Shown: piece by piece, positions 3,401 through 54,340 of the stretch | Layout: each line of letters opens with the position of its first letter | Position numbering within the stretch: position 1 is the stretch's first letter | DNA from: an uncultured Myxococcales bacterium | GTDB taxonomy: Bacteria > Myxococcota > B64-G9 | DNA length: 64,000 nt | Direction of reading: 5' to 3' | Assembly: GCA_964640665.1 (NCBI GenBank) | Contig: CAZXHT010000002.1 | Span: 38,567-102,566 of the forward strand | Translations under genes and position numbers: made by a program | The notes under the pieces: model-generated | What the model saw: only the letters and a program-made list of their open reading frames with translations | Databases searched by the model: none | Told to the model about the DNA's origin: nothing

Positions 3401-3403
3401 ATA

Positions 3404-6441: not shown

Positions 6442-8940
<2,499 letters not shown>

Positions 8941-8950
8941 CGGCAGAACC

Positions 8951-9949
8951 ATGAAAAGAACAATTTTTCGCTCGGTCGGGGGATATGTTCCGGACAAGGT
9001 GGTGACCAACGACGATCTGTCTAGCATTATGGAGACAAGCGACGAATGGATAGTAGAGCGTACGGGAATCAGGCAAAGACACTGGGTGGAAGAAAGCACC
9101 GGATCGAGCGACTTGGCTGTTCCCGCTTCTTATGAAGCGCTGGAAAGGGCCGGTATAGACGTCGGTGATATCGACTGCATCGTGCTCGCGACCCTCTCTC
9201 CGGACCACACCTTTCCCGGAACGGCCTGTTTTTTACAGCACAAGCTTGGGCTCGGGGGCATCGCCGCGCTGGACGTCAGGAACCAGTGCTCGGGTTTCAT
9301 CTACGGCCTTAGTATCGCTGACGCCTGGGTGCGCTGTGGCCAGTACAAATGCGTCCTGTTGGTTGGAACGGAGGTTCATTCGACCGGCATCGACAAGACC
9401 ACGCGCGGTCGGGATATCGCCTGCCTCTTCGGAGACGGGGCCGGGGCCGTAATTCTCACTCCCACAGACGATCAGAAAAGGGGTATCCTGTCCACACATC
9501 TGCACGCCGACGGAAAGTACGCCCGCTCGCTGTGGATCGAGGCGCCGGGATCATGCTTTTATCCGTTGCGCATCAACGAGCAAATGCTGGAGGAAGGGCG
9601 GCACTTTCCAAAGATGAAGGGTCGGCACGTATTCACCCATGCAATCAAGCGCATGCCGGAAGTCATAGGCGAGGCCTTATCAGAAAACGGTTTCAAACCG
9701 AGTGACGTCGACCTGTTCGTTCCACATCAGGCAAATCAGAGGATTACCGAAGCAGTAGCAAAGGTAATGGGTTTCGGATCAGAGCAGGTGTACTCGAATA
9801 TCGAGAGATACGGAAACACAACCGCCGCCAGCATACCGCTGTGTCTCAAGGATGCCGAGAGAGAGGGTCGCCTGAAGAAGGGAGACCTGCTCCTGCTGGC
9901 ATCTTTCGGAGCGGGTTTCACCTGGGCCAGCGCCCTTGTCAAATGGTAA
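8951..9949 (+). CDS. fabH: 3-oxoacyl-ACP synthase III (KAS III)
   Basis: 332 aa; active-site Cys context NQCSGF, HQANQRI and GNTTAASIPL motifs. Confidence 0.9.
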   Translation: MKRTIFRSVGGYVPDKVVTNDDLSSIMETSDEWIVERTGIRQRHWVEESTGSSDLAVPASYEALERAGIDVGDIDCIVLATLSPDHTFPGTACFLQHKLGLGGIAALDVRNQCSGFIYGLSIADAWVRCGQYKCVLLVGTEVHSTGIDKTTRGRDIACLFGDGAGAVILTPTDDQKRGILSTHLHADGKYARSLWIEAPGSCFYPLRINEQMLEEGRHFPKMKGRHVFTHAIKRMPEVIGEALSENGFKPSDVDLFVPHQANQRITEAVAKVMGFGSEQVYSNIERYGNTTAASIPLCLKDAEREGRLKKGDLLLLASFGAGFTWASALVKW

Positions 9950-9983
9950 TTGCCAGAGAGAAACAGTTACGGGTATTGCAGAT

Positions 9984-11294: not shown

Positions 11295-11401
11295 CGGTGA
11301 GAATTCTACACCGACCCGGGGCGGCCGTCAACGGGCACCGCAATTATTCATAATTGCTTGATAATAAAGGTTATATGCTGATTTAGGGGGCGTAAAATTC
11401 G

Positions 11402-11431
11402 TTGACACTCACGCTGGCGTGGTGGTAGAAA
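11402..11431 (+). promoter_or_regulatory. Putative promoter upstream of gyrA (TTGACA - 18 nt - TAGAAA)
   Basis: Perfect -35 hexamer, weak -10; located in 228-bp divergent intergenic region. Confidence 0.3.
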
Positions 11432-11522
11432 AACGATGTGAAAAAGTTAGGATAAACGTGACCTTGTAGTGAAATAGAATTGGTTTATTAGAACCGGGCG
11501 ACACGGAGAGGAAAACGGCAAC

Positions 11523-13979
11523 ATGACAGACTCGGCAATTCAGCAGAAGGTGAACATCGAAGATGAGATGCGGACATCGTATCTCGACTACGCCATGAGC
11601 GTGATAATCGGCCGGGCTCTTCCGGATGTCCGCGACGGTCTCAAGCCGGTGCACCGACGCATCCTGTACGCGATGTACTCCGAGGGGCTGATACACAGCC
11701 ACAAGTATTCCAAGTGTGCCGGAGTAGTCGGCGAAGTGTTGAAGAAATACCATCCGCACGGAGATGCCGCGGTCTACGACACGCTCGTGCGCCTGGCCCA
11801 GAGTTGGAACCTGCGCTACACGCTCGTGGACGGGCAGGGTAATTTCGGATCTATCGACGGCGATCCGCCCGCGGCCTACCGCTACACCGAGGCGCGACTG
11901 AAGAGGATCGCCGAGGAAATGCTGGCTGACATCGAGAGTGCAACGGTTAATTTCGTACCCAACTTCGACGGGTCGGCGCAGGAACCGACCATTCTGCCCT
12001 CGAGGATTCCAAACCTGTTGGTCAACGGCTCGACCGGCATCGCGGTCGGCATGGCCACCAACATTCCCCCTCACAACCTGCGCGAGGTAATCGATGCCTG
12101 CATCCACCTCATTCGCCACCCGGAGGCCGGCGTCGAAGACCTGATGAAATATATACCCGGGCCGGATTTTCCTACGGGCGGAATTATCTACGGTGTCGGG
12201 GGCATCGAGCAGGCTTACAGGACGGGCAGGGGTATCCTGGCCGTCAGAGCCAAAGCTGGCCAGGAGGTACATCCCAAGACCGGGCGCCTGAGCATCATCG
12301 TTGCCGAGATTCCATATCAGGTTAACAAGGCCAGGCTGATCGAGCGAATTGCCGACCTGGTGCGAAACAAGAAAATCAGCGGCATCGCCGACGTCAGGGA
12401 CGAGAGCGACCGGGAAGGAATGCGCATAGTCATCGATCTGAAGCGTGACGCCGTCTACGAGGTCGTCCTCAACCAGTTGTTCAAGCACACACCGATGCAA
12501 AGTTCGTTCGGCACCATCCTGCTGGCAATAGTCGGCGGCCAGCCGCGGGTGATGAACCTGCGCGAGATGATCAAGCACTACAATTCCCATCGACGCGAGG
12601 TGATCCGCAGGCGCTGCACTTACGAGTTACAACAGGCAAAAGCCAGGGCACACATTCTCGAAGGCTTGCAAATCGCGCTCGATCATCTTGACGAAGTGAT
12701 CAACCTGATCCGCTCGGCCAAGGATCCGGCCGAGGCAAAACAGGGCCTGATTAGCGGTTTCGAGCTAAGCGATAAACAGGCCCAGGCCATACTGGAGATG
12801 CGCCTCCAGCGCTTGACTGGTCTCGAGCGGGAGAAGATCGCCGCGGAGTTGGAAAAGATCAGGCAGGAAATCGCCCACTTGGATGCCATCCTGCAGGACG
12901 TTGAGAAACTGCTGCAGGTAGTAATCGACGAACTCGAGGAAGTGCGCGAACGATACAAGGACGAGCGCAGGACAGAGATATACAGAGAGACCAGGGAAAT
13001 CACGTTAAAAGACCTGCTGGCGGACGAAGATCACGTTGTTACCGTGAGCCACGCCGGGTACATAAAGCGCACCAAGCTCAACCAGTACAGGAGACAACGG
13101 CGCGGCGGCCGCGGCCGGAGCGGGATGCATACCAAGGAACAGGACTTCGTTGAAAATGTCTTCGTAGCCTCCACACACAGTAACATCCTGGTGATAACAC
13201 AGAAGGGACAGGCCCTGGTCCTGAAAGTTCACATGGTCCCCGAAGCCAACCCGGCGGCGCGTGGCGTGGCGCTGGTAAACCTGGCCCGTCTGCAGAAGGG
13301 CGAGCAGGTAGCGGCTATCATCCCGGTAAAGTCCTTTGACGAGAAGAAGGACGACTATCTCTGCCTGGCCAGCCGCAACGGCTACATCAAGAAAAGCCTC
13401 CTGGGCTTTTATTCCAACATCAACGTGGCTGGTATACGCGCGATGCGGGTCGAGGAGCATGACGAGGTAATCGCCGCCTGCATCACGAACGGCGAGCAGG
13501 AAATCATGATCAGCACACGCAAGGGCATGGCGGTGCGTTTCGGTGAAAGGGACGCCCGGGCCATGGGAAGGGTCGCCCGTGGTGTGCGCGGCATCAAGCT
13601 GCGCCGGGAGGACGACAAGGTCGTGTCGATGGAAGTGGTTGATCCGGGGGCCACGATCCTGACCGTCTCCGAAAACGGTTACGGCAAAAGATCGGAGCTT
13701 GATGAGTATCGGCTGACAGCGCGCGGGGGCGTTGGCGTGAAAACTTGCCAGGTGACGGAAAAAACGGGTCCGGTAGTTGGGGTGATGCAGGTGTCGAGCG
13801 ATGACGACCTGATGTTAATCACGGACGGTGGCATGGTGATTCGCACCGAGATAAATGGAATCTCAGTGATGGGTAGAGCCACACAAGGAGTGCGCCTGAT
13901 AGACCTGAAGGAAGGAGAGCGTGTCGTCGGCTTGGCACGGCTCGTAGAAAAAGAGAGAGTTGGGGAGAACGATAAATGA
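11523..13979 (+). CDS. gyrA: DNA gyrase subunit A
   Basis: 818 aa; [15 protein letters not shown], active-site Tyr region [11 protein letters not shown]-terminal beta-pinwheel repeats. Confidence 0.97.
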
Positions 13980-38192: not shown

Positions 38193-38298
38193 AGCTTCTA
38201 CCTCTGGAATACGCTGACTCCAGCCTTGCGGGCGGAGTTCGGCTTCTCGTCGGGGATGGTCCAGGCAAAGGCCAAAGAGCAGTCGAGCACCAATTTCA

Positions 38299-38553
38299 TC
38301 AGAAGCGGCGTCCTTCATCAATCAACTTACTAATACTCAGGCCGGGTCCCACCCTTTTCCTGATCTCGCGGAACTTTTCCAGGATTTCGGCGAAGTCCGG
38401 TTCATGGTCATCTTCATTATAAGGAACCAGGCGGGCCACGACCTTGCCGCGACGGCGGATGACGAAGGAACGTCCCTTCTCGGTTTCGCGGAGAAGCTCG
38501 GCCAGGCGGGTCTTGGCTTCGAAGGAACCAATTTCATCTTCATGGACAACCAA
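38299..38553 (-). CDS. Phd/YefM-family type II antitoxin (orphan, C-terminally extended)
   Basis: N-terminal IGSFEAKTRLAELLRETEKGRSFVIRRRGKVVARLVP matches Phd/YefM fold consensus; no cognate toxin ORF adjacent. Confidence 0.6.
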   Translation of the reverse strand: MVVHEDEIGSFEAKTRLAELLRETEKGRSFVIRRRGKVVARLVPYNEDDHEPDFAEILEKFREIRKRVGPGLSISKLIDEGRRF

Positions 38554-38781
38554 CTGGAATACCTCCTTGTTGTCTTCTGTAAACCAGTTTATTAAATCAG
38601 TAGAATAACGTCAAGGGAAGAAGGGGACGGCGGAGAAGATCATCACGTGGAAAAGCACCTCGACTCAGATGATTTATTGCCATTTCCTGAAATAGTATCG
38701 GATCTTCTTAATCGACATGTTTCTTGAAGGTCGATGTAGATATTGGTACACTGTTCTTGTAAAAAGATATATTAGCTCTCA

Positions 38782-39426
38782 TTGACACCTCATGGGCTGG
38801 TATTCACGATGAACGACACGCAGATTCGGGAAGGCCTCCATAAAAAATTACTGAAGAGGCATCATATTTGTAAGGATACACTCGTTGTCAACGAGTTGGG
38901 CCTGAGACATGGTACTAACCGGGCTGACATTGTTGTAATAAATGGGAACCTTGTCGGATACGAGATCAAGAGTGACAAAGACTCATTGCACCGACTCAAA
39001 GAACAAGTACCCGCGTATACCTCGGTTTTTGACTGGTCTTCGGTGGTGGTTGGCACTCGACACAAGACGGTGATTGAATCGTTGGTGCCTGACAACTGGG
39101 GAGTAATAGTGTCATACCAAGGTCCCAGAGGCGGTGTCCACTTTGAAACGCTACGTGTGGCTCGCAGGAACCAAGCAGTGGATCCTTTCGCGATTGCACA
39201 ACTACTCTGGCGAGATGAAGCCGTGGCTATCCTTGCGGAGAAAGATGTGCCAGCGCGAGTACTGCGACAGTGCCGTTCTGTGCTCTACAAGCATCTCGTG
39301 GAAATGCTCAGTCTATCGGAATTGCAGAGTCGGGTCAGGGCTTTCCTGAAGAACCGTAGAAACTGGCGACATCCCGCACAACCTTTTCAAGATGGTGGTT
39401 TGTGCCGACCCACCGCCAAGTTGTAA
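38782..39426 (+). CDS. PD-(D/E)xK-type nuclease-fold protein (MmcB/sce7726-like)
   Basis: Core RADIVVINGNLVGYEIKSDKDS gives D...E-x-K arrangement typical of restriction-endonuclease-like fold; 214 aa. Confidence 0.5.
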   Translation: MTPHGLVFTMNDTQIREGLHKKLLKRHHICKDTLVVNELGLRHGTNRADIVVINGNLVGYEIKSDKDSLHRLKEQVPAYTSVFDWSSVVVGTRHKTVIESLVPDNWGVIVSYQGPRGGVHFETLRVARRNQAVDPFAIAQLLWRDEAVAILAEKDVPARVLRQCRSVLYKHLVEMLSLSELQSRVRAFLKNRRNWRHPAQPFQDGGLCRPTAKL

Positions 39427-40453
39427 GGTTGCCCGTTGTTTCAGTGCCGCCTGCGCAGCCTTTAATGTACTCGTCCCCTTTTGAGAAACTGTCCCCACAG
39501 TAGCCTTGTGAATCCATGACTGTTCGGCAATGGCCTTTGTACTGCCCGAATTTATGGTCTCGGACATTCGGTCCTTTGACCACAAACCAGGCATCATCGA
39601 TTGCGTACCTGATGCTTGCCGATGGCTTCACCTTTCGCATGTCCACCAACAGAACCTGCGGGTGGCTGATTGTATAGTCTCCAAAGGTGGGGATTCGAGA
39701 ACTACCAAGCCTGCTGGCTACTTTCTTGTAAAGAAGCCATTCATAGCGTTCAATAACTGAAGGACTATGCTTCACTTCTGCCATTGACTGTGGAAACGAG
39801 GCACCTAGAAGGATGAATGTTCTCCACTTCTTCAGGTATGGTATTCGTTCGATGATCGCTTGCACGAGTTTGCTGAAGCCTTCAAGAGGGAGGAAATTGG
39901 GTGACCCCAAGTCGAGGACGAGGTCACACTCATTTGCCCTCATCTCCATGAGCTTCAATAACTTATTGAGGTTGACCTCAAGGCTTGATCTGTTGGCTAG
40001 TTCAATTCCTATACGTAGACAGAGACCTTTTTTATCCTTGCTGATAGCACGCTTGACTGAACTCTGGTAGCGATGATCTCTCTCCAGCCCAGTTACAGGT
40101 ACCGCATGACATTTCTCAGCTCGGAGTTCATTGAAAACATAGTCGACCGGGTGCCTTCGGCTCTTCATCATTGTCTTCGAATCCAACAGATTGAGATCTA
40201 CAAAGCAAGGCTGTTGTCCCCACTTTGTACTGACTCGCTTGGCGAAGGGTTCCAGGTGCTCATCGACTGTCCTCTTGTCAGACTGTGCCTCAAAATCGAA
40301 ACCGATTTCCGGAACCTCTATGAACGGAGTAAGTGAACGCTTTGCTGACTTGGATAGCCGCAGCACGGCCTGATACTCCCCCTGTTTCCATCGGAGGCAC
40401 GGAACATAATGTTCATGGTCGAATCTCATCGTAAACCTCCTTTCACTGTCCAA
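39335..40453 (-). CDS. Uncharacterised 372-aa protein (last gene of HTH/ImmA operon), C-terminal Cys cluster
   Basis: Long ORF with 11-bp overlap with upstream XRE/ImmA gene; C-terminal HCx9CGDx9C pattern; no recognisable catalytic motif. Confidence 0.5.
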   Translation of the reverse strand: MDSERRFTMRFDHEHYVPCLRWKQGEYQAVLRLSKSAKRSLTPFIEVPEIGFDFEAQSDKRTVDEHLEPFAKRVSTKWGQQPCFVDLNLLDSKTMMKSRRHPVDYVFNELRAEKCHAVPVTGLERDHRYQSSVKRAISKDKKGLCLRIGIELANRSSLEVNLNKLLKLMEMRANECDLVLDLGSPNFLPLEGFSKLVQAIIERIPYLKKWRTFILLGASFPQSMAEVKHSPSVIERYEWLLYKKVASRLGSSRIPTFGDYTISHPQVLLVDMRKVKPSASIRYAIDDAWFVVKGPNVRDHKFGQYKGHCRTVMDSQGYCGDSFSKGDEYIKGCAGGTETTGNLTTWRWVGTNHHLEKVVRDVASFYGSSGKP

Positions 40454-41735
40454 ATCGGACCTCGGTGAATTGCTTCCTCACCTCGCCTAGTCCCACCATG
40501 TCTTTGAGGATTACGTAATTGTTCGCCTCTTTTCTTATCCTCCCTGCGATGATAGCGGTGCCTATCTTGAGCTTAATCGCTGCTTCCCTGATGGCCTCCT
40601 CGGTTCTAACATATCGAGCCAGAGCTGTTTCCCACATGTCATCAGGGATAAGCATATTCCCAGCGAAGTCATTGGCCTCCCGCTCCACGTCATCACCCTC
40701 TATGTCGAGGTCATCGAAGATGTCTTCAATCTTCCCTTTGCGTAGATGCTTGACCACATGGGCCAACTCGTGAAAAAGGACAAACCAAAAATTATCAAGT
40801 CTATCATACCGCAACGTCATACCGATAACTGGGTGTCCGTCTCTAAGAAGAAAAGTAGCTCCATCCAGATATGTCCTTGGAAGATGAGGTTCAAAAACAA
40901 GAGAGATGCCAGATTTTGCCAAGTACTCCTTGGCCAATTGTGGCCCATTAGTTTGTTGACTCATCTGCGCCAGCTCACGAAACCACCTAACTGACAGTCC
41001 CTTGCGTTCAAAATCGCCTACGTCTTTCTCCATGCCAGAGAGCAGGAGAATCCGACATTGCCAAGCGATGAGAGCATAGGTGTCCATATTTCTGCCCATA
41101 CGGGCTCGCTGTCGGAGAAGGGCTGGCTGTCGCAAGGGCATTGCCTTCTCGATGAAATCCTTCACAAGTTCATCTGCACATGACATGGCCGTCGACAGTG
41201 AGCCTTTGAAGTCCTCAAACCAGTTCCGACGATACATTTCTTTTACTGGGAACAAACTCCAATCCAGTTCTTTGGGATCGCCTTTGTATGCCCTGGTAGG
41301 AGTCCCAACAATTTCGGCAACTTCACTGATGTTTAGGTTAAGGGTCCTCGCCACTTGTGTGATCCTCTGCAAGCTTGCTGAGGAATAATATTCAGCCTCA
41401 TACCTTTGGACTTGCTGCTCCTTCACGCCGAGCATTTCAGCCAGTTCTCGTTGGGATAGACCCTTGGCAATCCTCGCTTGGATGAGTACCGTTGGCATTT
41501 GTTCTAGAGACGCCGCACTTAATACCGTGATCGCACCGGATTCCAGTGCTTCATATTCACGAATTTGATCGGAGAGGCTCAAGACTTCACTTTCCAATGC
41601 GCTAAATTCGGCCTTTGCTAGAACTGCTGAACCCGTGCGTTGTGCAGCTTCCTTGATGTCAAAGGCCTCTACCGCATCTTTGAGTTTCCGATACTGAGCC
41701 CTTGTTATTCTATACTGCCGGTCATTAGTAATCAT
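40443..41735 (-). CDS. XRE-family HTH domain fused to ImmA/IrrE-family zinc metallopeptidase
   Basis: HTH_XRE (IAKGLSQRELAEMLGVKEQQVQRYE) at aa ~95-150; HEXXH (FHELAHVV) plus EREANDFAGNMLIP downstream, diagnostic of COG2856 ImmA/IrrE. Confidence 0.8.
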   Translation of the reverse strand: MITNDRQYRITRAQYRKLKDAVEAFDIKEAAQRTGSAVLAKAEFSALESEVLSLSDQIREYEALESGAITVLSAASLEQMPTVLIQARIAKGLSQRELAEMLGVKEQQVQRYEAEYYSSASLQRITQVARTLNLNISEVAEIVGTPTRAYKGDPKELDWSLFPVKEMYRRNWFEDFKGSLSTAMSCADELVKDFIEKAMPLRQPALLRQRARMGRNMDTYALIAWQCRILLLSGMEKDVGDFERKGLSVRWFRELAQMSQQTNGPQLAKEYLAKSGISLVFEPHLPRTYLDGATFLLRDGHPVIGMTLRYDRLDNFWFVLFHELAHVVKHLRKGKIEDIFDDLDIEGDDVEREANDFAGNMLIPDDMWETALARYVRTEEAIREAAIKLKIGTAIIAGRIRKEANNYVILKDMVGLGEVRKQFTEVRFGQ

Positions 41736-41749
41736 TCAGTCCTCCATCC

Positions 41750-42229
41750 TCACATGAGTCGGACACGGACAATGCCTTTCTGCTTGCCCGTGTGCCTGTC
41801 CTTCTGGAAATACTCCACGAAGGTTCTTCGTCCATTCGCAAATGCGCTCGATGGGAATAACTCACCCTCGAATTTGTCCTTCTGGTTTTTTCGGCTGTCG
41901 CTGAAATCTAGTAGGACCGGGTCTAACTTCTTGGCGTTGACACCTACGGGGTCCCAGCAGGCATCGTAATCACCCGGTTCCGGCTTCCCGGTAACAAAAC
42001 TTCCGTCGATGTAGACCGTTTTACACCCAGCTCTCTGAAGGGCCTCTATACTTGCTTTCAATCCTGTAAAAAGCATTTGGCGTCGTGGCGTCGTGGCAAA
42101 TACCTTCTTAACCTCATCAAGTGTTGCATCGTGTACCCCAGGAGGCAGGACCGGCCAAGGACTCTTGATGTCAACCAGCTCAGGAATCATGACACAATTA
42201 TATTGTTGTGTTGATAAATGATCCAGCAA
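41750..42229 (-). CDS. Putative minimal nucleotidyltransferase (pol-beta superfamily)-like protein
   Basis: IDGSFVTGKPEPGDYD fits hG[GS]x9-13DhD NTase motif; 159 aa; first gene of operon, 14 bp upstream of XRE/ImmA gene. Confidence 0.4.
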   Translation of the reverse strand: MLDHLSTQQYNCVMIPELVDIKSPWPVLPPGVHDATLDEVKKVFATTPRRQMLFTGLKASIEALQRAGCKTVYIDGSFVTGKPEPGDYDACWDPVGVNAKKLDPVLLDFSDSRKNQKDKFEGELFPSSAFANGRRTFVEYFQKDRHTGKQKGIVRVRLM

Positions 42230-42487
42230 AATGTCATAAAAAAATCAAAATGCCATGAGGCGGGAGTTGTTCTTCGAACGAGGCGTGTCAATAAACATAT
42301 TTGTATTCGATCAAGCCAGCGATCGGGCGCGTCGAATTCACCGTTGTCGTCGGGTCGGGCCGCAATCTGCACACCGGGGACACTCCCGATAGCCACCGGC
42401 ACATCGGAAGTCGGCAAGCCACAGACACGCACCGCGACCCAGTGCCGCCCGTGCCACCACCGCCACAGAACGATGGGGTGTTTGGTC

Positions 42488-44107
42488 TTACGTTGTCAAT
42501 CGCTTCAAATTGTCAACTGCTTGGACAACGAGCTCATCTGGAAAAGCGCCACGACTCAGCAATTCAATTGCATTTGTTGTCTTGCACAGTCCGGGTTTCA
42601 GGCGATAGTCGAAAAGGATGTCACTGCCCTGATAATGCTCTGAGAAATGGTACCTTTCAAAATTGTGATCAACCAACGTGCCAATCGCAAGGTCATGGGT
42701 GGCAACAATAACAAGGTTGCTCTTTGCCAAGTATTGGATGACTGCCGCAGCAGCCGCGACTCGCTCCACGGGATTTGTCCCCCTGAACAATTCGTCAACA
42801 ATGAAAAGGCAGTTGTTTCGGCTTGTGCTATACCCAACCAGTTTCTGGATGACATCAACCTCTACCGCAAACAAGCTCTTGCCGTTTTCAATGTCATCTG
42901 CAATGTCGATTGAAGTTTTAATGTAAAACAGACAGGCTTCGTACTTGCGTGCCACAGACGTATTGATGGTTTGAGCAAGAATCGCGTTCAATGCGACAGT
43001 TTTCAAAAACGTGGTCTTCCCGGACATATTGGAACCGGTAATCAACATGCTTGATCCATGGATTTCGAATGAATTGCCGATCGCCCGGTCTAGCCTCGGA
43101 TGAAGAAGGTTCTCGGCCTTGATCAGGCAAGGTGTATCGACAAATTCTGGTTTGCACCAGACGGGCTGGCTTCTGCGGTATGATGCAATTGAAATGCAGG
43201 CATCGATCAAGCCGATGGATCGAAAGAGAATGCGAAGATGCTTCTGGCTGTTTTCAATTTGTTCCCGGAGGGAGCCATAAGCGAGAACTTTTCTGAGTGT
43301 CAGGATGTTGAGATAGTCCAGCAGTTGTGTCGGATCTCTGAGCTGTATATACCTGCATTTTCTGGCGAGCGGGAGACACTGGTTGATGCTGGCGGAAAAT
43401 TCGACTTCGGAGGGAAAGTTTTTCCCGATAAGTTCGTGCAGATTTGCGCTCGATTGTATGAGTCTACCGAGACAGGAGAGGACATCGATTTCGTAGCCAA
43501 AAACCTCTTCGTACTTGTAGTGAACCATTAAGTTTATTAAAAACATCACAAGGGCGGCAGCCCAAAACAGAGGCTTGAAGACGGCCACAACAACGAACAC
43601 AATCAGGGCGATTGTACAAAGCCTGACCACTGTAATTGACAACGGAGGCTTGGGGAGGTTCTTCCAGATAAGCCTCGGTAGAGAAAATGAAGTATCATCG
43701 TCAAGGGAGAGAAGCTCAACTTGTGCTTTCTCGCGCAATTCAGCGTCGGTTTCAAACAACTCGACAAGTGGCTCCGGGACAGTTATCGCCTCTGAGTTGA
43801 GGCATGGCGTGACGAGAGTCTGATAGAGGTACTGCGATCCAGGGCTCGAGGTTGCGTGGTCGATAGATCCAAACACAAAATTGATATCAAGATCAGACCT
43901 TGTCCTACTGTCCAGCGAGAATCTGTTGAAGTCATCCGGGTTCTCTGAATCGATCTGTTCATAGAATTTGCACTTCTCGATTGGCCGCGGCGAACTCCGG
44001 CGATTTCCCCATTCCCGGCGCAGCCTCTTGAGTTGTTCCGCCTTTTTCGAAAAGATGCAGATTCGAGAGAGAACCGATCTGAAATGAGCCGCCGCGTTGG
44101 TGAGCAT
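42488..44107 (-). CDS. Membrane-anchored MutS-domain-V-like ABC ATPase
   Basis: Walker A ITGSNMSGKTTFLK, Walker B LFIVDELFRGTN, VIVATHD; two predicted TM helices (aa ~165-215); no mismatch-binding N-domain. Confidence 0.7.
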   Translation of the reverse strand: MLTNAAAHFRSVLSRICIFSKKAEQLKRLRREWGNRRSSPRPIEKCKFYEQIDSENPDDFNRFSLDSRTRSDLDINFVFGSIDHATSSPGSQYLYQTLVTPCLNSEAITVPEPLVELFETDAELREKAQVELLSLDDDTSFSLPRLIWKNLPKPPLSITVVRLCTIALIVFVVVAVFKPLFWAAALVMFLINLMVHYKYEEVFGYEIDVLSCLGRLIQSSANLHELIGKNFPSEVEFSASINQCLPLARKCRYIQLRDPTQLLDYLNILTLRKVLAYGSLREQIENSQKHLRILFRSIGLIDACISIASYRRSQPVWCKPEFVDTPCLIKAENLLHPRLDRAIGNSFEIHGSSMLITGSNMSGKTTFLKTVALNAILAQTINTSVARKYEACLFYIKTSIDIADDIENGKSLFAVEVDVIQKLVGYSTSRNNCLFIVDELFRGTNPVERVAAAAAVIQYLAKSNLVIVATHDLAIGTLVDHNFERYHFSEHYQGSDILFDYRLKPGLCKTTNAIELLSRGAFPDELVVQAVDNLKRLTT

Positions 44108-44119
44108 TGTTTTCCCCTT

Positions 44120-45559
44120 TCAGTGCCAGAAGCCTATCCCGGCTCCGATATCGAGGTAGCCCGGTGCCCCGTCCACCGTGAGCGAGGCTCGCAGGTCGAA
44201 GGGATCCGTGTAGCCGAAGAGGTCCCACCTGAAAAGGCGCAGCTCCAGGCCGCCCGTGCCATGGGGTCGTAATGGTACGCCGGCGTAGCGGGGTGGCTCG
44301 AGGTAGAAGCCGGCTCTCAACTTGAGGCGATCGGGCCAGATTTCTGTTTCGGCTCCGAGCCTGAAGCCGAAAGAAAGGCCGTCACCGGACGCCCGCCTCT
44401 TCTGCTCGACGAATGAGTCGATGCCGACGCCGTCTGTGGTGCCGCCGATGATGAAAACATCCGCGCTCATAAGCAAATATGATTTGGGAAGAGACTCGTA
44501 CTCCTTGCGTCGCTCGTGCTCGATCACCGCTTCCCGTACATCCAACGCCTTTTCGAGCAAGAGCTCCTCCGCCTCGCGAAGCTTCTTCTCCCGAGCCCAC
44601 CAGATCTCGTCACGAGGCATGTCTAAAAGGTTGGGGCACTCGTCCGACGTAGTGATCCCTTCACGATCCGGTTTCTCCAGGGCCTGCTGGGCCACCGCGC
44701 GTTTGCAGCGCGCGCTTTCGATATGCTTGCGCAGATCCTGCTGCGGATCTGGTGGAGCCGACCAGACACGGTTCATCGGCCGCGGGCCGAACTGCCAGGC
44801 GAAACCCAACTGGACTTCCCAGGGCATGTGAACTCCGCGCGGCAGCACAAAGTTTTTGACGTAGCTCGTGCCGTCGCGCACCTCGACCCCCGGGGTCTTG
44901 TCCGGCCCGGACTCGACCGGCCCGCGGCCGGAAACTCCCAGCCGCCAGGGCATGTCGGCCAACTTCAAGAGCACGCCTCCTTCGACGCCGGCTCCGGTGA
45001 AATGCACCAAAGTGGTGTCGTCGGCCAGTTTGAGATCCAGGTCGGCGACCCGCGTTCCCAGCCCCACGATCAACTGCCCGCTAAAGAAGGCATAGGCCAC
45101 ACCGGCATGGCTTTCTATCAGGAAGATGTTAATCGGTTCTCCCGCCGAGCCGGTATTGTAGATCTGCAGTCGGGTGTCTGCCCCGATTCCCAAACTGCCG
45201 AACTGCAGGCGCAAACCCAGGCCGAGAAATGAGAACTTCTCAACTCCGATGCCCGAACCGTTGTTGAAGAAATCATCGAGCCCGAAGATGCCGGGCGCGC
45301 AGTAAGACAACGACAGACCGTACGAGAACCAGGAGAACTCGTAGGGCGGTCGCGAACCAAAAGATGCCGGATTGAAGTGTGCCCCATCGATATCCTCGGC
45401 CAGGGCGGTGTAGGCCCCGCCCATTCCCACAACGCGGCTCGAACCCAGCACCGGCCCGGTCACGGCGTCTATCTCGAAGTCGTTATGCGCGAAGATATCC
45501 TGGGCGGTCACCGGGCACGATAGTGCCACAATGAGCAAGATGGAGGACATGACGCGCAT
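44120..45559 (-). CDS. Putative outer-membrane beta-barrel protein
   Basis: Signal peptide LLIVALSCPVTAQD, alternating amphipathic beta-strand pattern, Gly/aromatic-rich, C-terminal GIGFWH. Confidence 0.45.
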   Translation of the reverse strand: MRVMSSILLIVALSCPVTAQDIFAHNDFEIDAVTGPVLGSSRVVGMGGAYTALAEDIDGAHFNPASFGSRPPYEFSWFSYGLSLSYCAPGIFGLDDFFNNGSGIGVEKFSFLGLGLRLQFGSLGIGADTRLQIYNTGSAGEPINIFLIESHAGVAYAFFSGQLIVGLGTRVADLDLKLADDTTLVHFTGAGVEGGVLLKLADMPWRLGVSGRGPVESGPDKTPGVEVRDGTSYVKNFVLPRGVHMPWEVQLGFAWQFGPRPMNRVWSAPPDPQQDLRKHIESARCKRAVAQQALEKPDREGITTSDECPNLLDMPRDEIWWAREKKLREAEELLLEKALDVREAVIEHERRKEYESLPKSYLLMSADVFIIGGTTDGVGIDSFVEQKRRASGDGLSFGFRLGAETEIWPDRLKLRAGFYLEPPRYAGVPLRPHGTGGLELRLFRWDLFGYTDPFDLRASLTVDGAPGYLDIGAGIGFWH

Positions 45560-47670: not shown

Positions 47671-47818
47671 GTTTCCTCCTTCGTAAGAGACACCATCATG
47701 TAGCCCAAAGAGCCGATCATTGCAAGAGCGGGAGCCGTCCAAAATTTTCCAAGCGAAAATCACGCTTGGCCTAAATCTTTTCTTTTTAACCCCGCCGATT
47801 GGTGATAAGCTCTCGGAC

Positions 47819-50800
47819 ATGCTGCGAGGATGTGGGTGTTTACATCCGGTCCGATGGACCGGTTGCAGAACGTTACTGTTCTTGCACCTGGTGTCTTGCG
47901 CGAATCCGGTCTTGGCCGGGACGCGGGAGGCGGGGCCGCTTATCGATTTGCCCGGCAAATTGACTTCGGCGGCCATGGAGATCATCGACGGAGAACTCGA
48001 AGAACTTGGCAAGGATCCCGACTGGGATGCCCTGCACGCCTTCCTGGCCTCGCAGCCCGCTTCGCCCGTGGCCCGGTACGCGCGGGCCTCCGCTGATTTG
48101 AAACGCTGCGCCGTTTGGGACGGGGAACGCGGCCTCGAGACGCTCGCGGCCTTGCGCAAGGAAGCCGCCCAGCGGGGTGATCGGGTGCTGGCCGCACGGC
48201 TGCTTCTGGCCATCGGCCGCGGGCAACTCGCCCTGCGACACAACGCCCGGGCGCTGTCCTCCCTCGAGACCGCGGCAGCCGAGCTGCGCAGGTTGGGAGA
48301 TTCCCGGGGGCTGGTAGAGGCGCTTTTCCAACTCAGCAGCGGTCTGATCAACAATTCCCGCCGGCCGCGGGACGCCTTGAAATACATCAACGAGTTGCAG
48401 GTGCGGGCCGCGCGCCTCGACATGCGCGATTATGAACAGTTAGCCGCGCGTCTCTACGATGAATGGCGCAAGGGAATAGACGAAGTTGACGACTACTTCG
48501 GCCGGGCCCGTAACCGCTTGCAGTACTTCCCGCCGGCCCTCGGCATTTCCGAAGACGCGGACCTGGTGGCTTTTACTAACGGTGTGCTGGTCATGAACGG
48601 AGACACCGACGATCAGGTAGTGTCCGCCCGTCCCGAATTCGTGTCCTTCGACGGCCTGTTTACCCGCAAGTTGAAGCTGCCGGGCGACTCGCTGCAAATA
48701 CGCGGATCGCTGGTGGACGATCGCGGCCGGCTGTGGGCCGCAACCAACCGTGGCCTGTACCGCTACGACGGGGAGGGTTTCGTACACCTGTACAATCCCG
48801 CTCTTGCAGACGAGGAGGGCAACGATCTCGCAAGACAGGTAGCACGCGAGCGCGGCCGGATCTCGACTATGGAAGTTGCCTTATCTTCAAATATCGTAAA
48901 CGAGATAAAACAGGGCCCGGATGGTCGTTTCTATCTGGCAACAGCATCCGGGGCGTCTGTTTGTGATCGTGGCTTCAAGAAATTTCAGTATTTCACGCCG
49001 AAAAACGCTCCGCTGCCCGCGTCTGTCGAACGCATCGCCAAGGCTGCGGACGGATCGTTAGTGATTGCCTGGAGAGACGCCTACGCAGTGCGCCTGCCCG
49101 GGGGCGCCTGGAAAAGACGCGCCTTCGAGTTTCCCAAGGCCGCCGGCCGCCCGCACGGTAAGCTTTTTGGTCTTCTGGTCGACTCATCCGGGCACCCCTG
49201 GGTGCACGGTCTGGGGGGCGGACAGGAACTCTCCGGAACACGAGTTGTGCGCTATGTTGATCGACGCTTTTCGGCCATGACCCGCAACGTCAACCACGTG
49301 CTCAAGGCGAGTGATGGCGCCTATTGGTTCGCTTCAACCGATGGTCTCTGTCGCCAATCGGGTGCGCATTGCGACACGCTCAACGCCGGCCGCTGGATGC
49401 CGGCCGAGTGGTCGCTGGATCTGTTCGAGGGGCCGCCAGGAAACGTGTGGGTTTCTGTCTACCAGGGGGGGCTGATTCGCATCATGCCTCCCAACTACCG
49501 GCACTACGGGCTTGCCGAGGGTTTTCGCCAGCCGGTCAACGAAACAATCCGCGAACTTGCGGGTTACCTGTATTTCACAAACGGAGAGGGGTTGACGCGA
49601 CTGGATCCCGCCAGCGGCCGCATAGACAACTTCGCCTCCGAGGCAGAGGGCATACCCTTAGGAGAGCTGAAGATATCGGAGAAGTTGAGTGATGGGCGGC
49701 TGGCCCTGGCCGGTCCGGACATACTGGCGCAAAAGGCGATCGTCCTCTTCGATGGGCGGCATGGCCGCCTGGTGGACGAACACAATGGATTGCCGGCCGA
49801 AAGCCTGATCTCCTTTTGCCAGGACGAGGCCGGCAAGCTCGAGGTCGCCTACGGCACGGGTTTGTGGCAACTCGACCTGCAGACGCTGCGTGCTCGGCCG
49901 GACCCCGACTGGCGAGCGATCGAGGGCATACAGATTGTGGATCTTGCCTGCGCCGCCGACGGATCCGCCTGGGTGTTGACCCCTGATGCCGTCTATCGAC
50001 GGGATAGCAACGGCGTGCGACACATCGATCTCGGGGGTATTGGTTTGCACGGCAAGCCGCGCCAACTGATTGCGTCGGTGCGGGCCGGGGTCTTCGTTTT
50101 CGGACAGCGCCAGATATTGAACCGCCGAAATGACGCCTGGAAACAGATACCGGTCGATGCCGACAAATTCGACTTCCGCGTCCGCGACGTGGTCGAAGAC
50201 GATCGCGGCCTGCTCTACTTCGCCACCGAAAGCGGCGTTTTCGCCTTCAACGGTGAGAACTGGACCCGCCTGAGCGCGCGTGACGGATTGGTTTCCAGGA
50301 CAGCTTTCCAAATGTTGGCGCGCGGGGACGGGTTGTGGATATCCGGAGACGGAGGCGTCACTTGCTGGAACTGGCCTGAACAGCAACCGCCGGAGACGTT
50401 TCTGTTGTTCAGAGGCGATGCTTTCTTCGCCGATCCCGACGGGAGAGCGCTTCGCTTCCGGGCTTCAAACGGAATAGAAAAGGAAGGTTGGGTGCAGCTA
50501 CGCGGGACGGCCGGCCTGTTCGAGCTGCCCGAAAAGCAGGCCGGCTCGTTTTTAACGCCTGCCAGACGAACGGGTCTCCTGTTGACTGATAACGCAGGTG
50601 CAGGCGATTCGACGGCCTCCGGGATGAAGGTAGTAAGGTCGAACAGGCTTGAGTTTTTCGCTTCGGCCGGTGTGCCTTTCATGGACGATACACCCGATGA
50701 GTTCTCGTACCACTACCGGGTCGACGCGGGTGCCTGGTTTCCCGCCCGGGGAAGGAAGATTGTTGTCGGCGACCTGAAAGATGGAGTGCACCGGGTGGAG

Positions 50801-53800
50801 ATCCGCGCCACGGATCCACGCCTGGTTTCGGATCCCACACCGGCTCGATGGTCCTTCATGGTCGAGACGCCGATGTCCCCCTGGCTGCCGGCCGCCTTCG
50901 GTCTTTCGGCCGGCTTGCTTTTGTTCTTTGCGCGCCGACGCTGGATGTGGTTGCTGCAACGCTTGATGCACAGGCACTTCCATCCTCTCGACCCGGCATC
51001 ATTCGCCCCGCAGCGGCCGGCCAGCGGGCCCGATTTCATTGGTCGTGGGGAGCAGTTGGAAACTCTTTTGCGCGTGGCCGCGGATACCGGGGGGGTGGCC
51101 GTGGCATGGGGGGAGAGAGGAACAGGAAAACACTCGTTCATGCTGCGGCTCGCCGCGCAGCTGCGCCAGCGACACGTACATGTCGTCGAGATGGATCTGG
51201 CCGTTACGACTGCCGGCGGCGACGTCGCCAACCTGGTTGGCAGCCTGGGCCGCACCTTGCTGGACGTTTTAGAGTCAGACGGAGTTCGGATCGATTTGGC
51301 GCCGGCCATGGCAGGGGAATCGCTGTTATCCTTGCCGGGCAGCCTTGGCGGGGAGTCACCCGCCAAGGACATGCCGTCTCCACCCGGATCGTCGGCCTCG
51401 GGTGATAATCCGTTTGAGGTATTGAGTCGGACATTGCGGCATCTTGATCAGCAGGCGCCGGGTGAACGAGTGGCCTTCCTGATTGACAATGCCGAGGTGC
51501 TCGGCGTGGCCCTCGATTCGGACGCCGGCTATGGCTCTTACTTGTTTCCCTTTATGCGCTCGCTGGTTCAGGAACGTTCCTGTGTAACCATGGTGCTGGC
51601 CATCGAGGGCCGCTGGTTCAACCTTTCGCGGATTTACAGGCAGCTGTTTGCCTTCGCATCTCCGCTGGCCATCGATCGTCTCTCGCGGGAAGAAAGCAGC
51701 CGCCTGCTTACGGGCAGGCTCAAGAATCAGGCAATCGTATCCGAGCGGGATCTCGGGCGGCTTGTGGATCTGGCCGGCGGACATCCTTTCTTGCTGCAGC
51801 AAATTGGCAAACATCTGGTTGATGAAATGAACCGCCGGCGGACCAACGTGTGCTCGGGCAAGCTCGTCAAGGGGATATCGACCGTCCTGGTCGATGAAGT
51901 CGACAGCCAGCTGCAACGGATGTTTTTCGATCTTTCGCGCGAGGAAAAACTCGTGGTGACGGCCTTGTGCACAGGCGACCGTCGCGCAAGCAAGCTGGAC
52001 ACGATTGCGGCCCGTCTCGCGGAGGCCGGCGGCAAGTTGCTGTACGAGGAAATCCGCCGGGCCGTTTTGTCGCTCGCCAAGGACGGCACGCTCTTGAAAG
52101 ACGAGGATTACTTCTCCCTGCAAGGTGACCTGTATCGCAGCTGGGTGCATGCGCACCACTCTTTAGCCTCTGTGTTGGAGGAGTCGCATGACTACGTGGG
52201 CCACTACCAGCTCGTCGAAAAGCTGGGCTCCGGCGGCATGGGAGTAGTTTACAAGGCACGCAATCTGGTAACCGGTGCCACGGTGGCACTCAAACTGCTG
52301 CGGGCCGAGCTGTCGGAAAAGAAGCGTTCCCGGCGCCGTTTTCTGCGCGAAGCCAGACTGGGAAAGAGCATTCGGCACCCCAATATAGTGCGCATTCTCG
52401 ATTACGGAGAGCAGGCCGGACGACTTTACCTGGCCATGGAGTTCGTGGACGGCAAGACCTTGACCCTCTGGACTCGCAAGGCCGGCGGCCTGTCGGCACA
52501 GACAGTGTTGGAAATAGGCCGCCACCTGTTGTCGGCGCTGGTTGCCGTCCACGAGGTGGGGATCGTGCACCGTGACGTGAAAAGCGACAATGTCATGGTG
52601 ATAAGCGCGAAGGGCAACTCTATAAAGTTGATGGACTTCGGCCTGGCGGTGGGCAAGGACGTCTCTCGCATGACCCGCGCCGGCTCGTTGCTGGGCACCG
52701 TCGCCTACATGTCGCCGGAGCAGGCGAGGGGCAAGGTGGTTGACGCCCGTTCGGATCTCTATTCACTGGGGGTGGTACTGTATGAACTTTGTGCCGGCGC
52801 ACCGCCTTTTGCCGGCCCCGATGCCGCGGTGCTGCATTCTGTGATATACGATCTGCTCCCGCCGCTTGATGAGCGGGTTAAAAATATTCCTGCTGAGCTT
52901 TCGGCCTTCATCGGCAGGCTGCTCGCCAAGAATACCGACCAGCGTCCATCCAGTGCCCGCGAAGCTCTCGAGCAGCTCAACGGTCTAGCCGAACGACTTG
53001 GATCTTCCGGAGAAAACCTGTTCATGGGCGAGGCGGCGGCTGATGGCCGAACCGATCGGGGCACGACAAGTGGCATTACATCCGGGACAGAAGTGACCTC
53101 ACACGCACTGGAAACGCTCAAGTCACAGAGCATCTTGTTGTCTTCGCTGTCGACGGCCACAAAGGAATCTATCTCCTCGCTGGCGGACGCCACCCACGAT
53201 GCCGCCCGGCTGTTGCTATATCGCATCTCGGCCGATGTGGCTCGTGGCTCGATCGAAGGCGGCGTCTTGAGAGATTGCCTCGAACAGGTTTGCGACACGC
53301 TCGAGGCGAACCGCGGCCTGGTGGCCCTGGGGAGCGATGATGGAAAGTTCGAATGTGTAGCGTCCTTCAACCGTGATGTAGAACAGATTGAGAAGCTTCC
53401 GGTCTTGTTCTCATTGTTTCACCAGTGTGTAGGCAAGCAGAGCGGTCTCCTGTACACGGCCCCGCATGGTTCTGTCGAGGATGGAATGGGCACCGCCGTT
53501 TTCGCACCGCTCTGGGCCGCGGACAAGATCCTTGGCGCTTTCATGGTTGAACGTAGCGGAGCCGAGGCGCGTCCATTCGATTTTCATAGCCTGGAGTTGA
53601 TGGCAGGCGTCGGCTACCTGTTGGGACTCGGACTGGAACGCGAGAGGCTGTACAAACAGGTGCTGAATCAGGAACGCCTGGCCGCGGTGGGACACATGCT
53701 GGCCGGGGTGGCGCATGATATGCGTTCTCCAATGGCTGTCATTTCCGGCTACGCAGAGTTAATTACGTTTGAAAAAGACTCTTCCAATCGGGAGAAGAAC

Positions 53801-54340
53801 TGCGCCGTTATCGTGCGCCAGGTGGGAGAGATGAACCACATGATCGGCAATCTGCTGGCTTACGTTCGCGGGGACACGCAACTCAATCCCGCCCAAATCC
53901 GGGCAGAAGAACTCGCCGTGGAGATCGAGGAAACCTTCCGGCCGCAATGCGAGCCGCGGGGCATCGAGTTGAACATCAGCGCCGGGGAGGGGCCGGCGCG
54001 GGTCGATGTCTCCCGAACCAAGCGCATCATCTACAACCTGGGCAAAAACGCCGTGGAGGCCCTCGGTGAATCCGGCAAATTGGAGATACGCCTTGAGAGC
54101 CGGGACAACGGACTCGAAATCAGGATCCGCGACAACGGGCCTGGAATCCCAACCGAGGTGCGTGAGCATATGTTCGACCCGTTCTTTACAAGCGGCAAGA
54201 AAGGAGGAACCGGTCTTGGCCTGGCGATCGTGAGTCGCTTCATACACGACCAGGCCGGGTCGATATCCACACACTGTGGGGAAGGTGGCGGCACGACCAT
54301 GATTGTCCACATCCCCGATGTAACCAGCCGTAAAAGCTAA
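47819..54340 (+). CDS. Multidomain sensor kinase: TPR-like + beta-propeller/Y_Y_Y - TM - P-loop ATPase - Ser/Thr protein kinase - GAF - histidine kinase (HisKA+HATPase_c)
   Basis: Reg_prop/Y_Y_Y repeats (~48.7-50.86 kb), TM helix (~50.87-50.94 kb), Walker A GERGTGKHS (~51.11 kb), STK motifs GSGGMGVVYKA / HRDVKSDN / DFGLA / SPE (~52.2-53.0 kb), GAF (~53.2-53.65 kb), H-box AHDMRSP and G2 box GTGLGLAIV (~53.7-54.3 kb); start set at ATG 47819 (track start 47720 is upstream extension). Confidence 0.85.
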   Translation: MLRGCGCLHPVRWTGCRTLLFLHLVSCANPVLAGTREAGPLIDLPGKLTSAAMEIIDGELEELGKDPDWDALHAFLASQPASPVARYARASADLKRCAVWDGERGLETLAALRKEAAQRGDRVLAARLLLAIGRGQLALRHNARALSSLETAAAELRRLGDSRGLVEALFQLSSGLINNSRRPRDALKYINELQVRAARLDMRDYEQLAARLYDEWRKGIDEVDDYFGRARNRLQYFPPALGISEDADLVAFTNGVLVMNGDTDDQVVSARPEFVSFDGLFTRKLKLPGDSLQIRGSLVDDRGRLWAATNRGLYRYDGEGFVHLYNPALADEEGNDLARQVARERGRISTMEVALSSNIVNEIKQGPDGRFYLATASGASVCDRGFKKFQYFTPKNAPLPASVERIAKAADGSLVIAWRDAYAVRLPGGAWKRRAFEFPKAAGRPHGKLFGLLVDSSGHPWVHGLGGGQELSGTRVVRYVDRRFSAMTRNVNHVLKASDGAYWFASTDGLCRQSGAHCDTLNAGRWMPAEWSLDLFEGPPGNVWVSVYQGGLIRIMPPNYRHYGLAEGFRQPVNETIRELAGYLYFTNGEGLTRLDPASGRIDNFASEAEGIPLGELKISEKLSDGRLALAGPDILAQKAIVLFDGRHGRLVDEHNGLPAESLISFCQDEAGKLEVAYGTGLWQLDLQTLRARPDPDWRAIEGIQIVDLACAADGSAWVLTPDAVYRRDSNGVRHIDLGGIGLHGKPRQLIASVRAGVFVFGQRQILNRRNDAWKQIPVDADKFDFRVRDVVEDDRGLLYFATESGVFAFNGENWTRLSARDGLVSRTAFQMLARGDGLWISGDGGVTCWNWPEQQPPETFLLFRGDAFFADPDGRALRFRASNGIEKEGWVQLRGTAGLFELPEKQAGSFLTPARRTGLLLTDNAGAGDSTASGMKVVRSNRLEFFASAGVPFMDDTPDEFSYHYRVDAGAWFPARGRKIVVGDLKDGVHRVEIRATDPRLVSDPTPARWSFMVETPMSPWLPAAFGLSAGLLLFFARRRWMWLLQRLMHRHFHPLDPASFAPQRPASGPDFIGRGEQLETLLRVAADTGGVAVAWGERGTGKHSFMLRLAAQLRQRHVHVVEMDLAVTTAGGDVANLVGSLGRTLLDVLESDGVRIDLAPAMAGESLLSLPGSLGGESPAKDMPSPPGSSASGDNPFEVLSRTLRHLDQQAPGERVAFLIDNAEVLGVALDSDAGYGSYLFPFMRSLVQERSCVTMVLAIEGRWFNLSRIYRQLFAFASPLAIDRLSREESSRLLTGRLKNQAIVSERDLGRLVDLAGGHPFLLQQIGKHLVDEMNRRRTNVCSGKLVKGISTVLVDEVDSQLQRMFFDLSREEKLVVTALCTGDRRASKLDTIAARLAEAGGKLLYEEIRRAVLSLAKDGTLLKDEDYFSLQGDLYRSWVHAHHSLASVLEESHDYVGHYQLVEKLGSGGMGVVYKARNLVTGATVALKLLRAELSEKKRSRRRFLREARLGKSIRHPNIVRILDYGEQAGRLYLAMEFVDGKTLTLWTRKAGGLSAQTVLEIGRHLLSALVAVHEVGIVHRDVKSDNVMVISAKGNSIKLMDFGLAVGKDVSRMTRAGSLLGTVAYMSPEQARGKVVDARSDLYSLGVVLYELCAGAPPFAGPDAAVLHSVIYDLLPPLDERVKNIPAELSAFIGRLLAKNTDQRPSSAREALEQLNGLAERLGSSGENLFMGEAAADGRTDRGTTSGITSGTEVTSHALETLKSQSILLSSLSTATKESISSLADATHDAARLLLYRISADVARGSIEGGVLRDCLEQVCDTLEANRGLVALGSDDGKFECVASFNRDVEQIEKLPVLFSLFHQCVGKQSGLLYTAPHGSVEDGMGTAVFAPLWAADKILGAFMVERSGAEARPFDFHSLELMAGVGYLLGLGLERERLYKQVLNQERLAAVGHMLAGVAHDMRSPMAVISGYAELITFEKDSSNREKNCAVIVRQVGEMNHMIGNLLAYVRGDTQLNPAQIRAEELAVEIEETFRPQCEPRGIELNISAGEGPARVDVSRTKRIIYNLGKNAVEALGESGKLEIRLESRDNGLEIRIRDNGPGIPTEVREHMFDPFFTSGKKGGTGLGLAIVSRFIHDQAGSISTHCGEGGGTTMIVHIPDVTSRKS

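Follow-up and report, generated by a model that had tools for sequence, protein, structure and literature searches.

Among the bacterial members of the MutS superfamily, Lin, Nei and Ma (2007; PMC2190696) described MutS3, which consists of the domains MutSd and MutSac only, is encoded by unlinked A and B paralogues, and has a patchy distribution including Staphylococcus aureus, Myxococcus xanthus and Polaribacter. They reported the function as "not studied" and made no mention of membrane helices. In this study, we analyzed a stretch of 64,000 nucleotides from an uncultured Myxococcales bacterium (assembly GCA_964640665.1, contig CAZXHT010000002.1, positions 38,567–102,566; the whole stretch is called the window, and coordinates are counted from its first letter), which contains a gene for a MutS-related protein followed by a four-gene DUF6932-ImmA-Beta-cII-like module. 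Our favored reading, with a probability of roughly 0.6, is that the product is a stand-alone protein of MutS domains III and V with a transmembrane (TM) hairpin, which would act as an ATP-gated, membrane-tethered clamp or switch, is mobile, has no conserved partner, and is likely a MutS3. Other loci are given by handles (L001 and so on) where they have to be told apart.

Architecture and Family of the MutS-Related Protein

The C-terminal part of the protein is a MutS domain V ATPase. Pfam MutS_V (PF00488) matched amino acids (aa) 354–537 with an E-value of 3.3e-26 (92.9 bits against a cut-off of 30.2), profile matches of this domain to the PDB reached 1e-53, and the protein ends 2 residues beyond it. 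The Walker A and Walker B sites (43013–43039 and 42791–42808, respectively) and the C-terminal helix pair are present. In an alignment of 40 homologues, G358–K364 (Walker A), D438/E439 (Walker B), the S411/E416 signature, and His471 (ATHD) are invariant; a previous sequence-only reading of the window had recognized the same MutS/ABC-type ATPase by its Walker A, Walker B, and ATHD motifs. Ahead of the ATPase, MutS_III gave a sub-threshold match at aa 79–308 (E-value 1e-3). The protein thus has the features of the MutS superfamily, i.e., a domain V ATPase above the curated threshold and a core/lever domain III ahead of it. Pfam detected no MutS_I (PF01624), MutS_II (PF05188), MutS_IV (PF05190), or Smr, and no KOW domain was found in Pfam or NCBIfam. 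The sequence-only reading was right that mismatch-recognition and connector domains are missing, but it overlooked domain III; complete MutS2 domains (Smr, connector, clamp) were not found.

Family profile alignments paired residues 270–334 of Taq MutS with aa ~75–140 of the window protein (E-value 8e-6, and 1e-6 in a second run) and, as a second anchor, residues 497–761 with aa ~270–537. The first part of domain III contains the conserved motifs D66/T69/D72/L73 and G90/L94/L98/P101. When a domain-III-only profile with the hairpin excised was used, just the first and last helices aligned to MutS proteins in the PDB, the middle remaining without a sequence mapping.

Between the two parts of domain III lies one strongly hydrophobic block (Kyte–Doolittle 19-residue means of up to 2.8), which resolves into two helices: TM1 (~156–176), a K-P turn, and TM2 (~179–197) with a conserved asparagine (Asn192). 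In the AlphaFold2 model built from the 40-sequence alignment (predicted local distance difference test [pLDDT] 88, predicted template modeling score 0.87), TM1 comprises residues 158–175, and TM2 runs unbroken into a 50-residue helix (181–230), followed by helices 234–254 and 262–313 and by the ATPase. Both hydropathy and model agree with the two TM helices of the sequence-only reading, which had placed them at aa ~165–215, whereas they lie somewhat upstream, at aa 156–197. The external turn of the predicted hairpin has only two residues, and all soluble parts would therefore be cytoplasmic, on the inner face of the inner membrane. Counted back from the Taq anchor, the loop at the position of the clamp domain has only 5–17 residues in all 40 homologues; thus, the clamp domain is absent. 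By these alignments, the hairpin is a separate insertion inside domain III, ~60 residues upstream of the clamp position. A hairpin that replaces the clamp domain in the strict sense was rejected, since the Taq and Escherichia coli MutS anchors put the clamp site at aa 255–261.

This architecture belongs to a large family. A homologue search returned >3,000 proteins, nearly all of 530–600 aa and most with precomputed MutS_III and MutS_V matches, from Ignavibacteriales, Bacteroidota, KSB1, Aminicenantes, Clostridia, and other groups; those that have a name are called "MutS-related protein" or are listed as a "DNA mismatch repair ATPase MutS," and "MutS family DNA mismatch repair protein" is a further name in use at NCBI. 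The N-terminal half (aa 1–330) alone, searched against 1.84 billion cluster representatives, retrieved 1,221 proteins (clusters at 50% identity) at an E-value of at most 1e-3, 432 of them at 1e-10 or below, and all are colinear and ~500–620 aa long. The best 150 matches of this search include 122 full-length representatives, of which 120 have a mid-protein hydrophobic hairpin; the segment is hydrophobic in all 40 aligned homologues, with Asn192 being 95% conserved. An extra N-terminal TM helix occurs in 85 of the 122 representatives and is lacking in the window protein and its close relatives. The wider distribution includes Bacteroidota, Clostridia, Staphylococcus plasmids, Myxococcota, Gemmatimonadota, Acidobacteriota, and Xanthomonadales. 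In the clade of the window protein, the ratio of nonsynonymous to synonymous substitution rates is 0.17–0.22, indicating purifying selection, and the start codon is conserved. With all ATPase motifs intact, the gene is, judging from its sequence, functional, accessory, and mobile.

Family members were found on 50 plasmids, 14 of them from Staphylococcus, where the gene is alone among Fst toxins and IS6 elements. The Staphylococcus carriers include 26–64 kb plasmids of S. epidermidis and one 256-kb S. aureus plasmid record, in which Fst type I toxins and IS6 transposases adjoin the gene; the members on S. epidermidis PM221 plasmid 2 (L092 6574–8184) and in L093 (6944–8554), at 27–28% identity, have the N-terminal TM helix and the hairpin. 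The label "DNA mismatch repair protein MutS" of the plasmid copies is probably misleading. In a phage collection, only 1 of 50,697 records contained a family member: MT835495.1, an unannotated 70-kb contig from human feces (41724–42656; 24% identity over aa 20–324), whose copy could be genuinely phage-borne or belong to a misassigned contig. Two paralogues are present in some genomes, in tandem in Clostridium oceanicum (L010 7001–8584 and 8932–10533, 348 bp apart) and as two unlinked copies on separate contigs in Clostridium tarantellae (L049 and L050). Such pairs recall the MutS3A/MutS3B of Lin et al., and heterodimers are a possibility.

To our knowledge, every characterized MutS protein works as a dimer. 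By analogy with MutS1, MSH, and MutS2, the window protein would dimerize through domain V and form composite ATP sites, the Walker A/B motifs of one subunit facing the S-x-F-x-x-E signature of the other; ATP would close the two ATPase heads, and the lever helices would relay the movement. The helix lengths in the AlphaFold2 model suggest that the lever tips point to the membrane. There, the two hairpins may form a bundle of four helices held by the conserved Asn192 (or of six, where the N-terminal TM helix is present), and the membrane might close the ring in place of the clamp domains. As MutS1 acts on DNA and MutS2 on DNA junctions and collided ribosomes, we would guess that the substrate is a complex containing nucleic acid, met at the surface of the membrane. 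The protein does not recognize mismatches.

Several points weigh against this interpretation. The levers have no more than a mild positive charge (net means of +0.9 to +2.8), and the known DNA-contacting elements of MutS (domains I and IV) are all missing, which makes the nucleic-acid substrate a conjecture. The mechanism as a whole is inferred, and where the hairpin lies with respect to the lever tips was deduced from modeled helix lengths. The assignment to MutS3 is provisional, being made by architecture, gene context, and taxa. Finally, the gene and the neighboring module form one contiguous insertion/deletion (indel) relative to a sister genome, and joint acquisition with some local cooperation is possible.

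The same ATPase and hairpin could instead serve an ABC-transporter-like mechanotransducer, in which a MutS ATPase dimer would power transmembrane movement or signaling by four to six TM helices and nucleic acid would not be the substrate. We consider this unlikely: a subunit with only 2–3 TM helices and an external loop of two residues allows no periplasmic domain and leaves little room for a conduit, and no conserved substrate-binding or partner gene was found. Moreover, we know of no characterized MutS protein that does not act on nucleic-acid complexes.

Genomic Contexts and Mobility of the Gene

Comparison of the window with a syntenic sister genome (L089; flanking protein 91% identical, DNA 88–95% identical, synteny on both sides) revealed that the MutS-like gene and the downstream module are contained in one low-GC insertion (table 1). 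The GC content at third codon positions of the six island genes is 0.50–0.61 (0.56 for the MutS-like gene), versus 0.75–0.76 for the flanking genes, in agreement with the sequence-only reading, which had put the gene at the head of a low-GC island. The insertion is clean, starting a few bases past the stop codon of a host gene and ending just ahead of the Phd promoter. The MutS-like ATG is located 12 nt past the stop codon (44120–44122) of this upstream gene, which encodes 479 aa, and is preceded by an AAGGGG ribosome-binding site 6 nt on its 5' side. In L089, a 486-aa gene is followed by a Phd-PIN toxin–antitoxin pair and then by an old yellow enzyme (OYE) reductase gene; in a more distant relative (L091), the OYE gene comes directly after the 486-aa-type host gene.

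The hotspot, which extends from the 479-aa secreted-protein gene to the OYE gene, was observed in three states: empty in L091 (2184–2203), occupied by Phd-PIN in L089 and L090 (L089 11461–11540), and occupied by Phd plus the 5.5-kb composite in the window. The window has kept the Phd/YefM antitoxin gene (38299–38553, minus strand), most of the PIN partner gene (~310 bp; L089 11860–12169) is deleted, and the orphan antitoxin abuts the OYE gene (38231–38553). A second indel adjoins the hotspot: a 4.25-kb segment of L089 (5822–10073), which lies between a Na/Ca-exchanger gene and the 486-aa gene and carries a diacylglycerol-kinase-like gene and a gene for a 1,059-aa S8 peptidase, is missing from the window at 45508–45548.

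Four close homologues of the window protein (75–88% aa identity; L001, L004, L005, and L006) reside in four unrelated neighborhoods, none of which contains the module. Nucleotide identity to the window (80–90%) is limited to the coding sequence and ends 0–19 bp from its ends, giving gene-sized homology blocks (window 42469–44113; L001 7317–8961; L004 10001–11621; L005 3217–4832; L006 7000–8614). The GC content of the gene is 0.46–0.49 in all five contexts, versus flanks of 0.57–0.62 in four of them and 0.50–0.56 in L006. The gene always lies 12–89 nt behind a gene on the same strand and has no recognizable promoter of its own. Judged by these comparisons, the clade gene in five genomes behaves like a gene-sized cassette and is horizontally mobile, and the insertion of the window is a composite of two separately circulating units in a variable hotspot.

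No tRNA, target-site duplication, or long terminal repeat was found at the insertion boundaries; the junctions share only a 6-bp inverted match (AAGGGG/CCCCTT), which could be due to chance. An integron-like cassette was rejected, since homology between the window and L001 stops 19 bp past the stop codon and there is no shared attC-like 3' element. A promoter/terminator scan gave match counts at or below the shuffle expectation, Rfam had no match in 37.5–45 kb, and a distant blastn search of the whole insert against plasmids had none either.

A stand-alone anti-phage or abortive-infection protein, whose membrane-anchored ATPase would detect infection and disturb the membrane, would suit some of these contexts. 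A membrane hairpin combined with a nucleoside triphosphatase is a common effector layout, the gene is horizontally mobile (plasmid-borne beside Fst toxins in S. epidermidis), and the clade gene occurs in variable hotspots, accompanied by Phd and the PD-Lambda-2-like module in the window and, in L001 and L002, by HigB-HigA directly upstream with a type I restriction-modification system and Fic nearby. However, L004 and L005 are ordinary contexts, the immediate neighbors across the family are mostly housekeeping genes with few specific PADLOC matches, and PADLOC yielded for the protein itself just weak P-loop matches (PtuA and mad3; E-value 5e-4 or weaker). A defense role of this kind therefore seems improbable. 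A broader proposal would make the whole family a new class of membrane-embedded MutS machines, whose ATP-gated clamp, with the inner membrane standing in for the clamp domains, would capture nucleic acid or ribosomes at the membrane (e.g., incoming foreign DNA); in clades such as this one, the gene would spread as a promoterless single-gene cassette that inserts right behind host genes in defense and toxin–antitoxin hotspots and serves stand-alone immunity or surveillance. We regard this as speculative and rather doubtful.

Another explanation, proposed by the sequence-only reading, is that the protein is a sensor or effector component of the adjacent DUF6932-ImmA-Beta (PD-Lambda-2-like) system. 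As that reading had noted, the gene is directly upstream of the nucleotidyltransferase/ImmA operon, on the same strand and 258 bp from the DUF6932 gene, and both units are part of one 5.5-kb low-GC insertion missing from the sister genome. The partnership was examined from both sides in 59–84 family loci and in the relatives of the module. The module is near none of the four close homologues mentioned above. The closest relatives of the ImmA protein that have contigs (68–70% identity) are found in the same DUF6932-ImmA-Beta-cII-like module with unrelated genes upstream, and L086–L088 contain all four module genes with no MutS-like gene nearby. All-against-all clustering of open reading frames (ORFs) from 84 loci, a neighborhood analysis that the sequence-only reading had suggested, revealed no conserved neighbor, the recurring clusters being either shadow ORFs or generic genes in no fixed position (ABC ATPases, kinases, and response regulators). 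The 106 immediate neighbors of 59 loci matched 170 Pfam families, none of them in more than 4 neighbors; most are housekeeping genes such as Mqo, histidinol dehydrogenase, pyruvate kinase, glutamine synthetase, and TonB receptors.

In the window, the homology blocks of the two low-GC units are parted by a GC-rich, unrelated spacer (GC 62% over 42300–42499 and 57% over the whole intergenic region 42230–42487), and blastn of 42230–42487 found no match in the window or any compared locus, nor did Rfam. In addition, no PADLOC PD-Lambda-2 or PDC-M63 model matches the protein. Because the contexts are unlinked from both sides and the homology blocks are separate, with a GC-rich spacer between them, a partnership is unsupported, and we consider it very unlikely. 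As far as comparative data can show, the adjacency is coincidental and came about because the two units inserted into one variable hotspot.

The Neighboring Module and Other Features of the Window

The module is self-contained and occurs elsewhere without the MutS-like gene. The 3' ends of its Beta_protein and cII-like genes have 92 bp in common (39335–39426). The second and third proteins match PD-Lambda-2 models (B and C), whereas the first gene matches PDC-M63A instead of PD-Lambda-2_A; by these profile matches, the module looks like a variant or hybrid of the PD-Lambda-2/PDC-M63 candidate systems.

Table 1. Coordinates of the MutS-like gene, its parts, and its surroundings in the window
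Feature	Position	Strand	Basis or remark
"MutS-related protein" gene, likely MutS3-type	42488–44107	minus	539 aa, intact ORF
Leader, 12 nt, with AAGGGG ribosome-binding site; left junction of the insertion	44108–44119	minus	Sequence; blastn versus L089 resumes at 44116
N-terminal helix, aa 2–32, basic, too weakly hydrophobic for a TM helix	44012–44104	minus	AlphaFold2 secondary structure, homologue hydropathy
MutS domain III (core), first part, aa ~62–152	43652–43924	minus	Family profile versus Taq MutS; invariant columns
Predicted TM helical hairpin, aa 156–197	43517–43642	minus	Hydropathy, AlphaFold2 helices, homologues
Domain III remainder (lever helices), aa 198–325: H181–230, H234–254, H262–313	43133–43516	minus	
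Short loop, aa 255–261, at the clamp (domain IV) position of MutS1/MutS2	43325–43345	minus	Low-pLDDT loop, length range, Taq/E. coli anchors
MutS domain V ABC-type ATPase, aa 354–537	42497–43048	minus	Pfam, invariant residues, PDB profile matches
Spacer between MutS-like cassette and module, 215 bp	42254–42468	.	Homology blocks end at 42469 (versus L001) and 42253 (versus L087/L088)
DUF6932 minimal nucleotidyltransferase	41750–42229	minus	Pfam; PADLOC PDC-M63A, E 1.1e-14; GS...DxD motif visible
Helix-turn-helix + ImmA/M78	40443–41735	minus	PADLOC PD-Lambda-2_B, E 4.6e-93
Beta_protein	39335–40453	minus	PADLOC PD-Lambda-2_C, E 2.4e-57
sce7726/P4-cII-like, convergent	38782–39426	plus	Pfam/NCBIfam
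Whole four-gene module (context, not part of the MutS-like feature)	38782–42229		
Low-GC insertion versus syntenic sister genome, 5,493 bp; MutS-like gene + four-gene module	38623–44115	.	blastn versus L089 and L091; gene maps; GC content at third codon positions

Two other regions of the window were noted. By sequence motifs, 89–13979 appears to contain the end of dnaA, dnaN, recF, gyrB (6496–8940), and gyrA (11523–13979), and is an apparent replication-origin region; the first 3 kb of the window have an unusually low GC content (0.42–0.49). A 2,206-aa ORF (47720–54340) has the appearance of an unusually large multi-sensor kinase, its apparent parts being beta-propeller-like repeats, a TM segment, a P-loop NTPase (nucleoside triphosphatase) region, a Ser/Thr kinase (HRDVKSDN), a GAF-like region, and a histidine kinase core.

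Position within the MutS Superfamily

The protein was compared with the NCBIfam equivalog models of known MutS groups. It scored 117 bits against MutS1 NF003810 (cut-off 480), 99.8 bits against MutS1 TIGR01070 (cut-off 641.7), 81.5 bits against MutS2 TIGR01069 (cut-off 400), and 107.8 bits against KamC NF052383 (cut-off 300), in which only positions 229–427 of 508 were matched. As these scores are far below all equivalog cut-offs, the protein is not MutS1, MutS2, or KamC. KamC is the reactivase ATPase of lysine 5,6-aminomutase, and no kam genes were found near the locus. An ordinary MutS1 or MutS2 (acting in mismatch repair, anti-recombination, or ribosome rescue) that is truncated or mis-called is refuted by these scores and by the absence of domains I, II, and IV, KOW, and Smr; a length and architecture that are uniform across >1,200 clusters and the start codon conserved in the clade also speak against it. 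MutS4, an adjacent A/B pair with overlapping stop and start codons, was also rejected: a single gene is present here, and of the 84 loci, one alone contains a true tandem pair (that of C. oceanicum, with its 348-bp gap), two further double-ORF loci having the look of a single, split gene.

The searchable literature was queried for MutS bound to membranes, paralogues with TM helices, MutS encoded on plasmids, and the function of MutS3. Neither a functional or structural study of this family nor a membrane-anchored MutS was found; apart from Lin et al. (2007), the one relevant item was a transcriptome paper that briefly names a Leptospira gene mutS3. The view of the sequence-only reading that membrane-tethered MutS proteins are poorly characterized is in accordance with this result, but it had missed that the family is large and already named. 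Although MutS is a textbook family, a whole bacterial branch (>1,200 clusters at 50% identity) is without known function, and the searches found no description of a conserved TM hairpin inside the lever domain.

The recent reassignment of MutS2, once linked to DNA and now to ribosome rescue, shows that the MutS scaffold can be reused, and a version tethered to the membrane raises an obvious question. The window adds to this one instance of the family and its insertion history, not a function; its gene should neither be annotated as mismatch repair nor be counted within the adjacent PD-Lambda-2-like system.

The comparison with known systems can be given from the most distant to the closest. 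With the PD-Lambda-2 and PDC-M63 candidate defense systems, the MutS-like protein shares adjacency only, matching none of their models. ABC exporters and MacB/FtsX-type mechanotransmission offer a functional analogy only. Their ATPase is of a different lineage from the MutS domain V found here, and a subunit of the family has only 2–3 TM helices, with neither a periplasmic domain nor a permease as partner; neither an ABC_tran nucleotide-binding domain nor a permease with four or more TM helices per half was found. MutS1 and MSH2-MSH3-MSH6 possess domains I, II, and IV, whereas the window protein lacks these and is predicted to be membrane-anchored. MutS2 (PDB 7qv3, 9kce, and 7vuf) is soluble and contains the clamp as well as C-terminal KOW and Smr nuclease domains, none of which is present in the window protein, which has the TM hairpin instead. 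The family carries the hairpin, of which the published account of MutS3 makes no mention, and in the window clade the N-terminal TM helix typical of the family has been lost. What it shares with MutS3 is an architecture of domains III (MutSd) and V (MutSac) only, stand-alone unlinked genes with sometimes two paralogues per genome, and the taxa Staphylococcus, Myxococcota, and Flavobacteriia. Because of the same architecture, the stand-alone genes, and the overlapping taxa, MutS3 as defined by Lin et al. is the most likely identity of the family.

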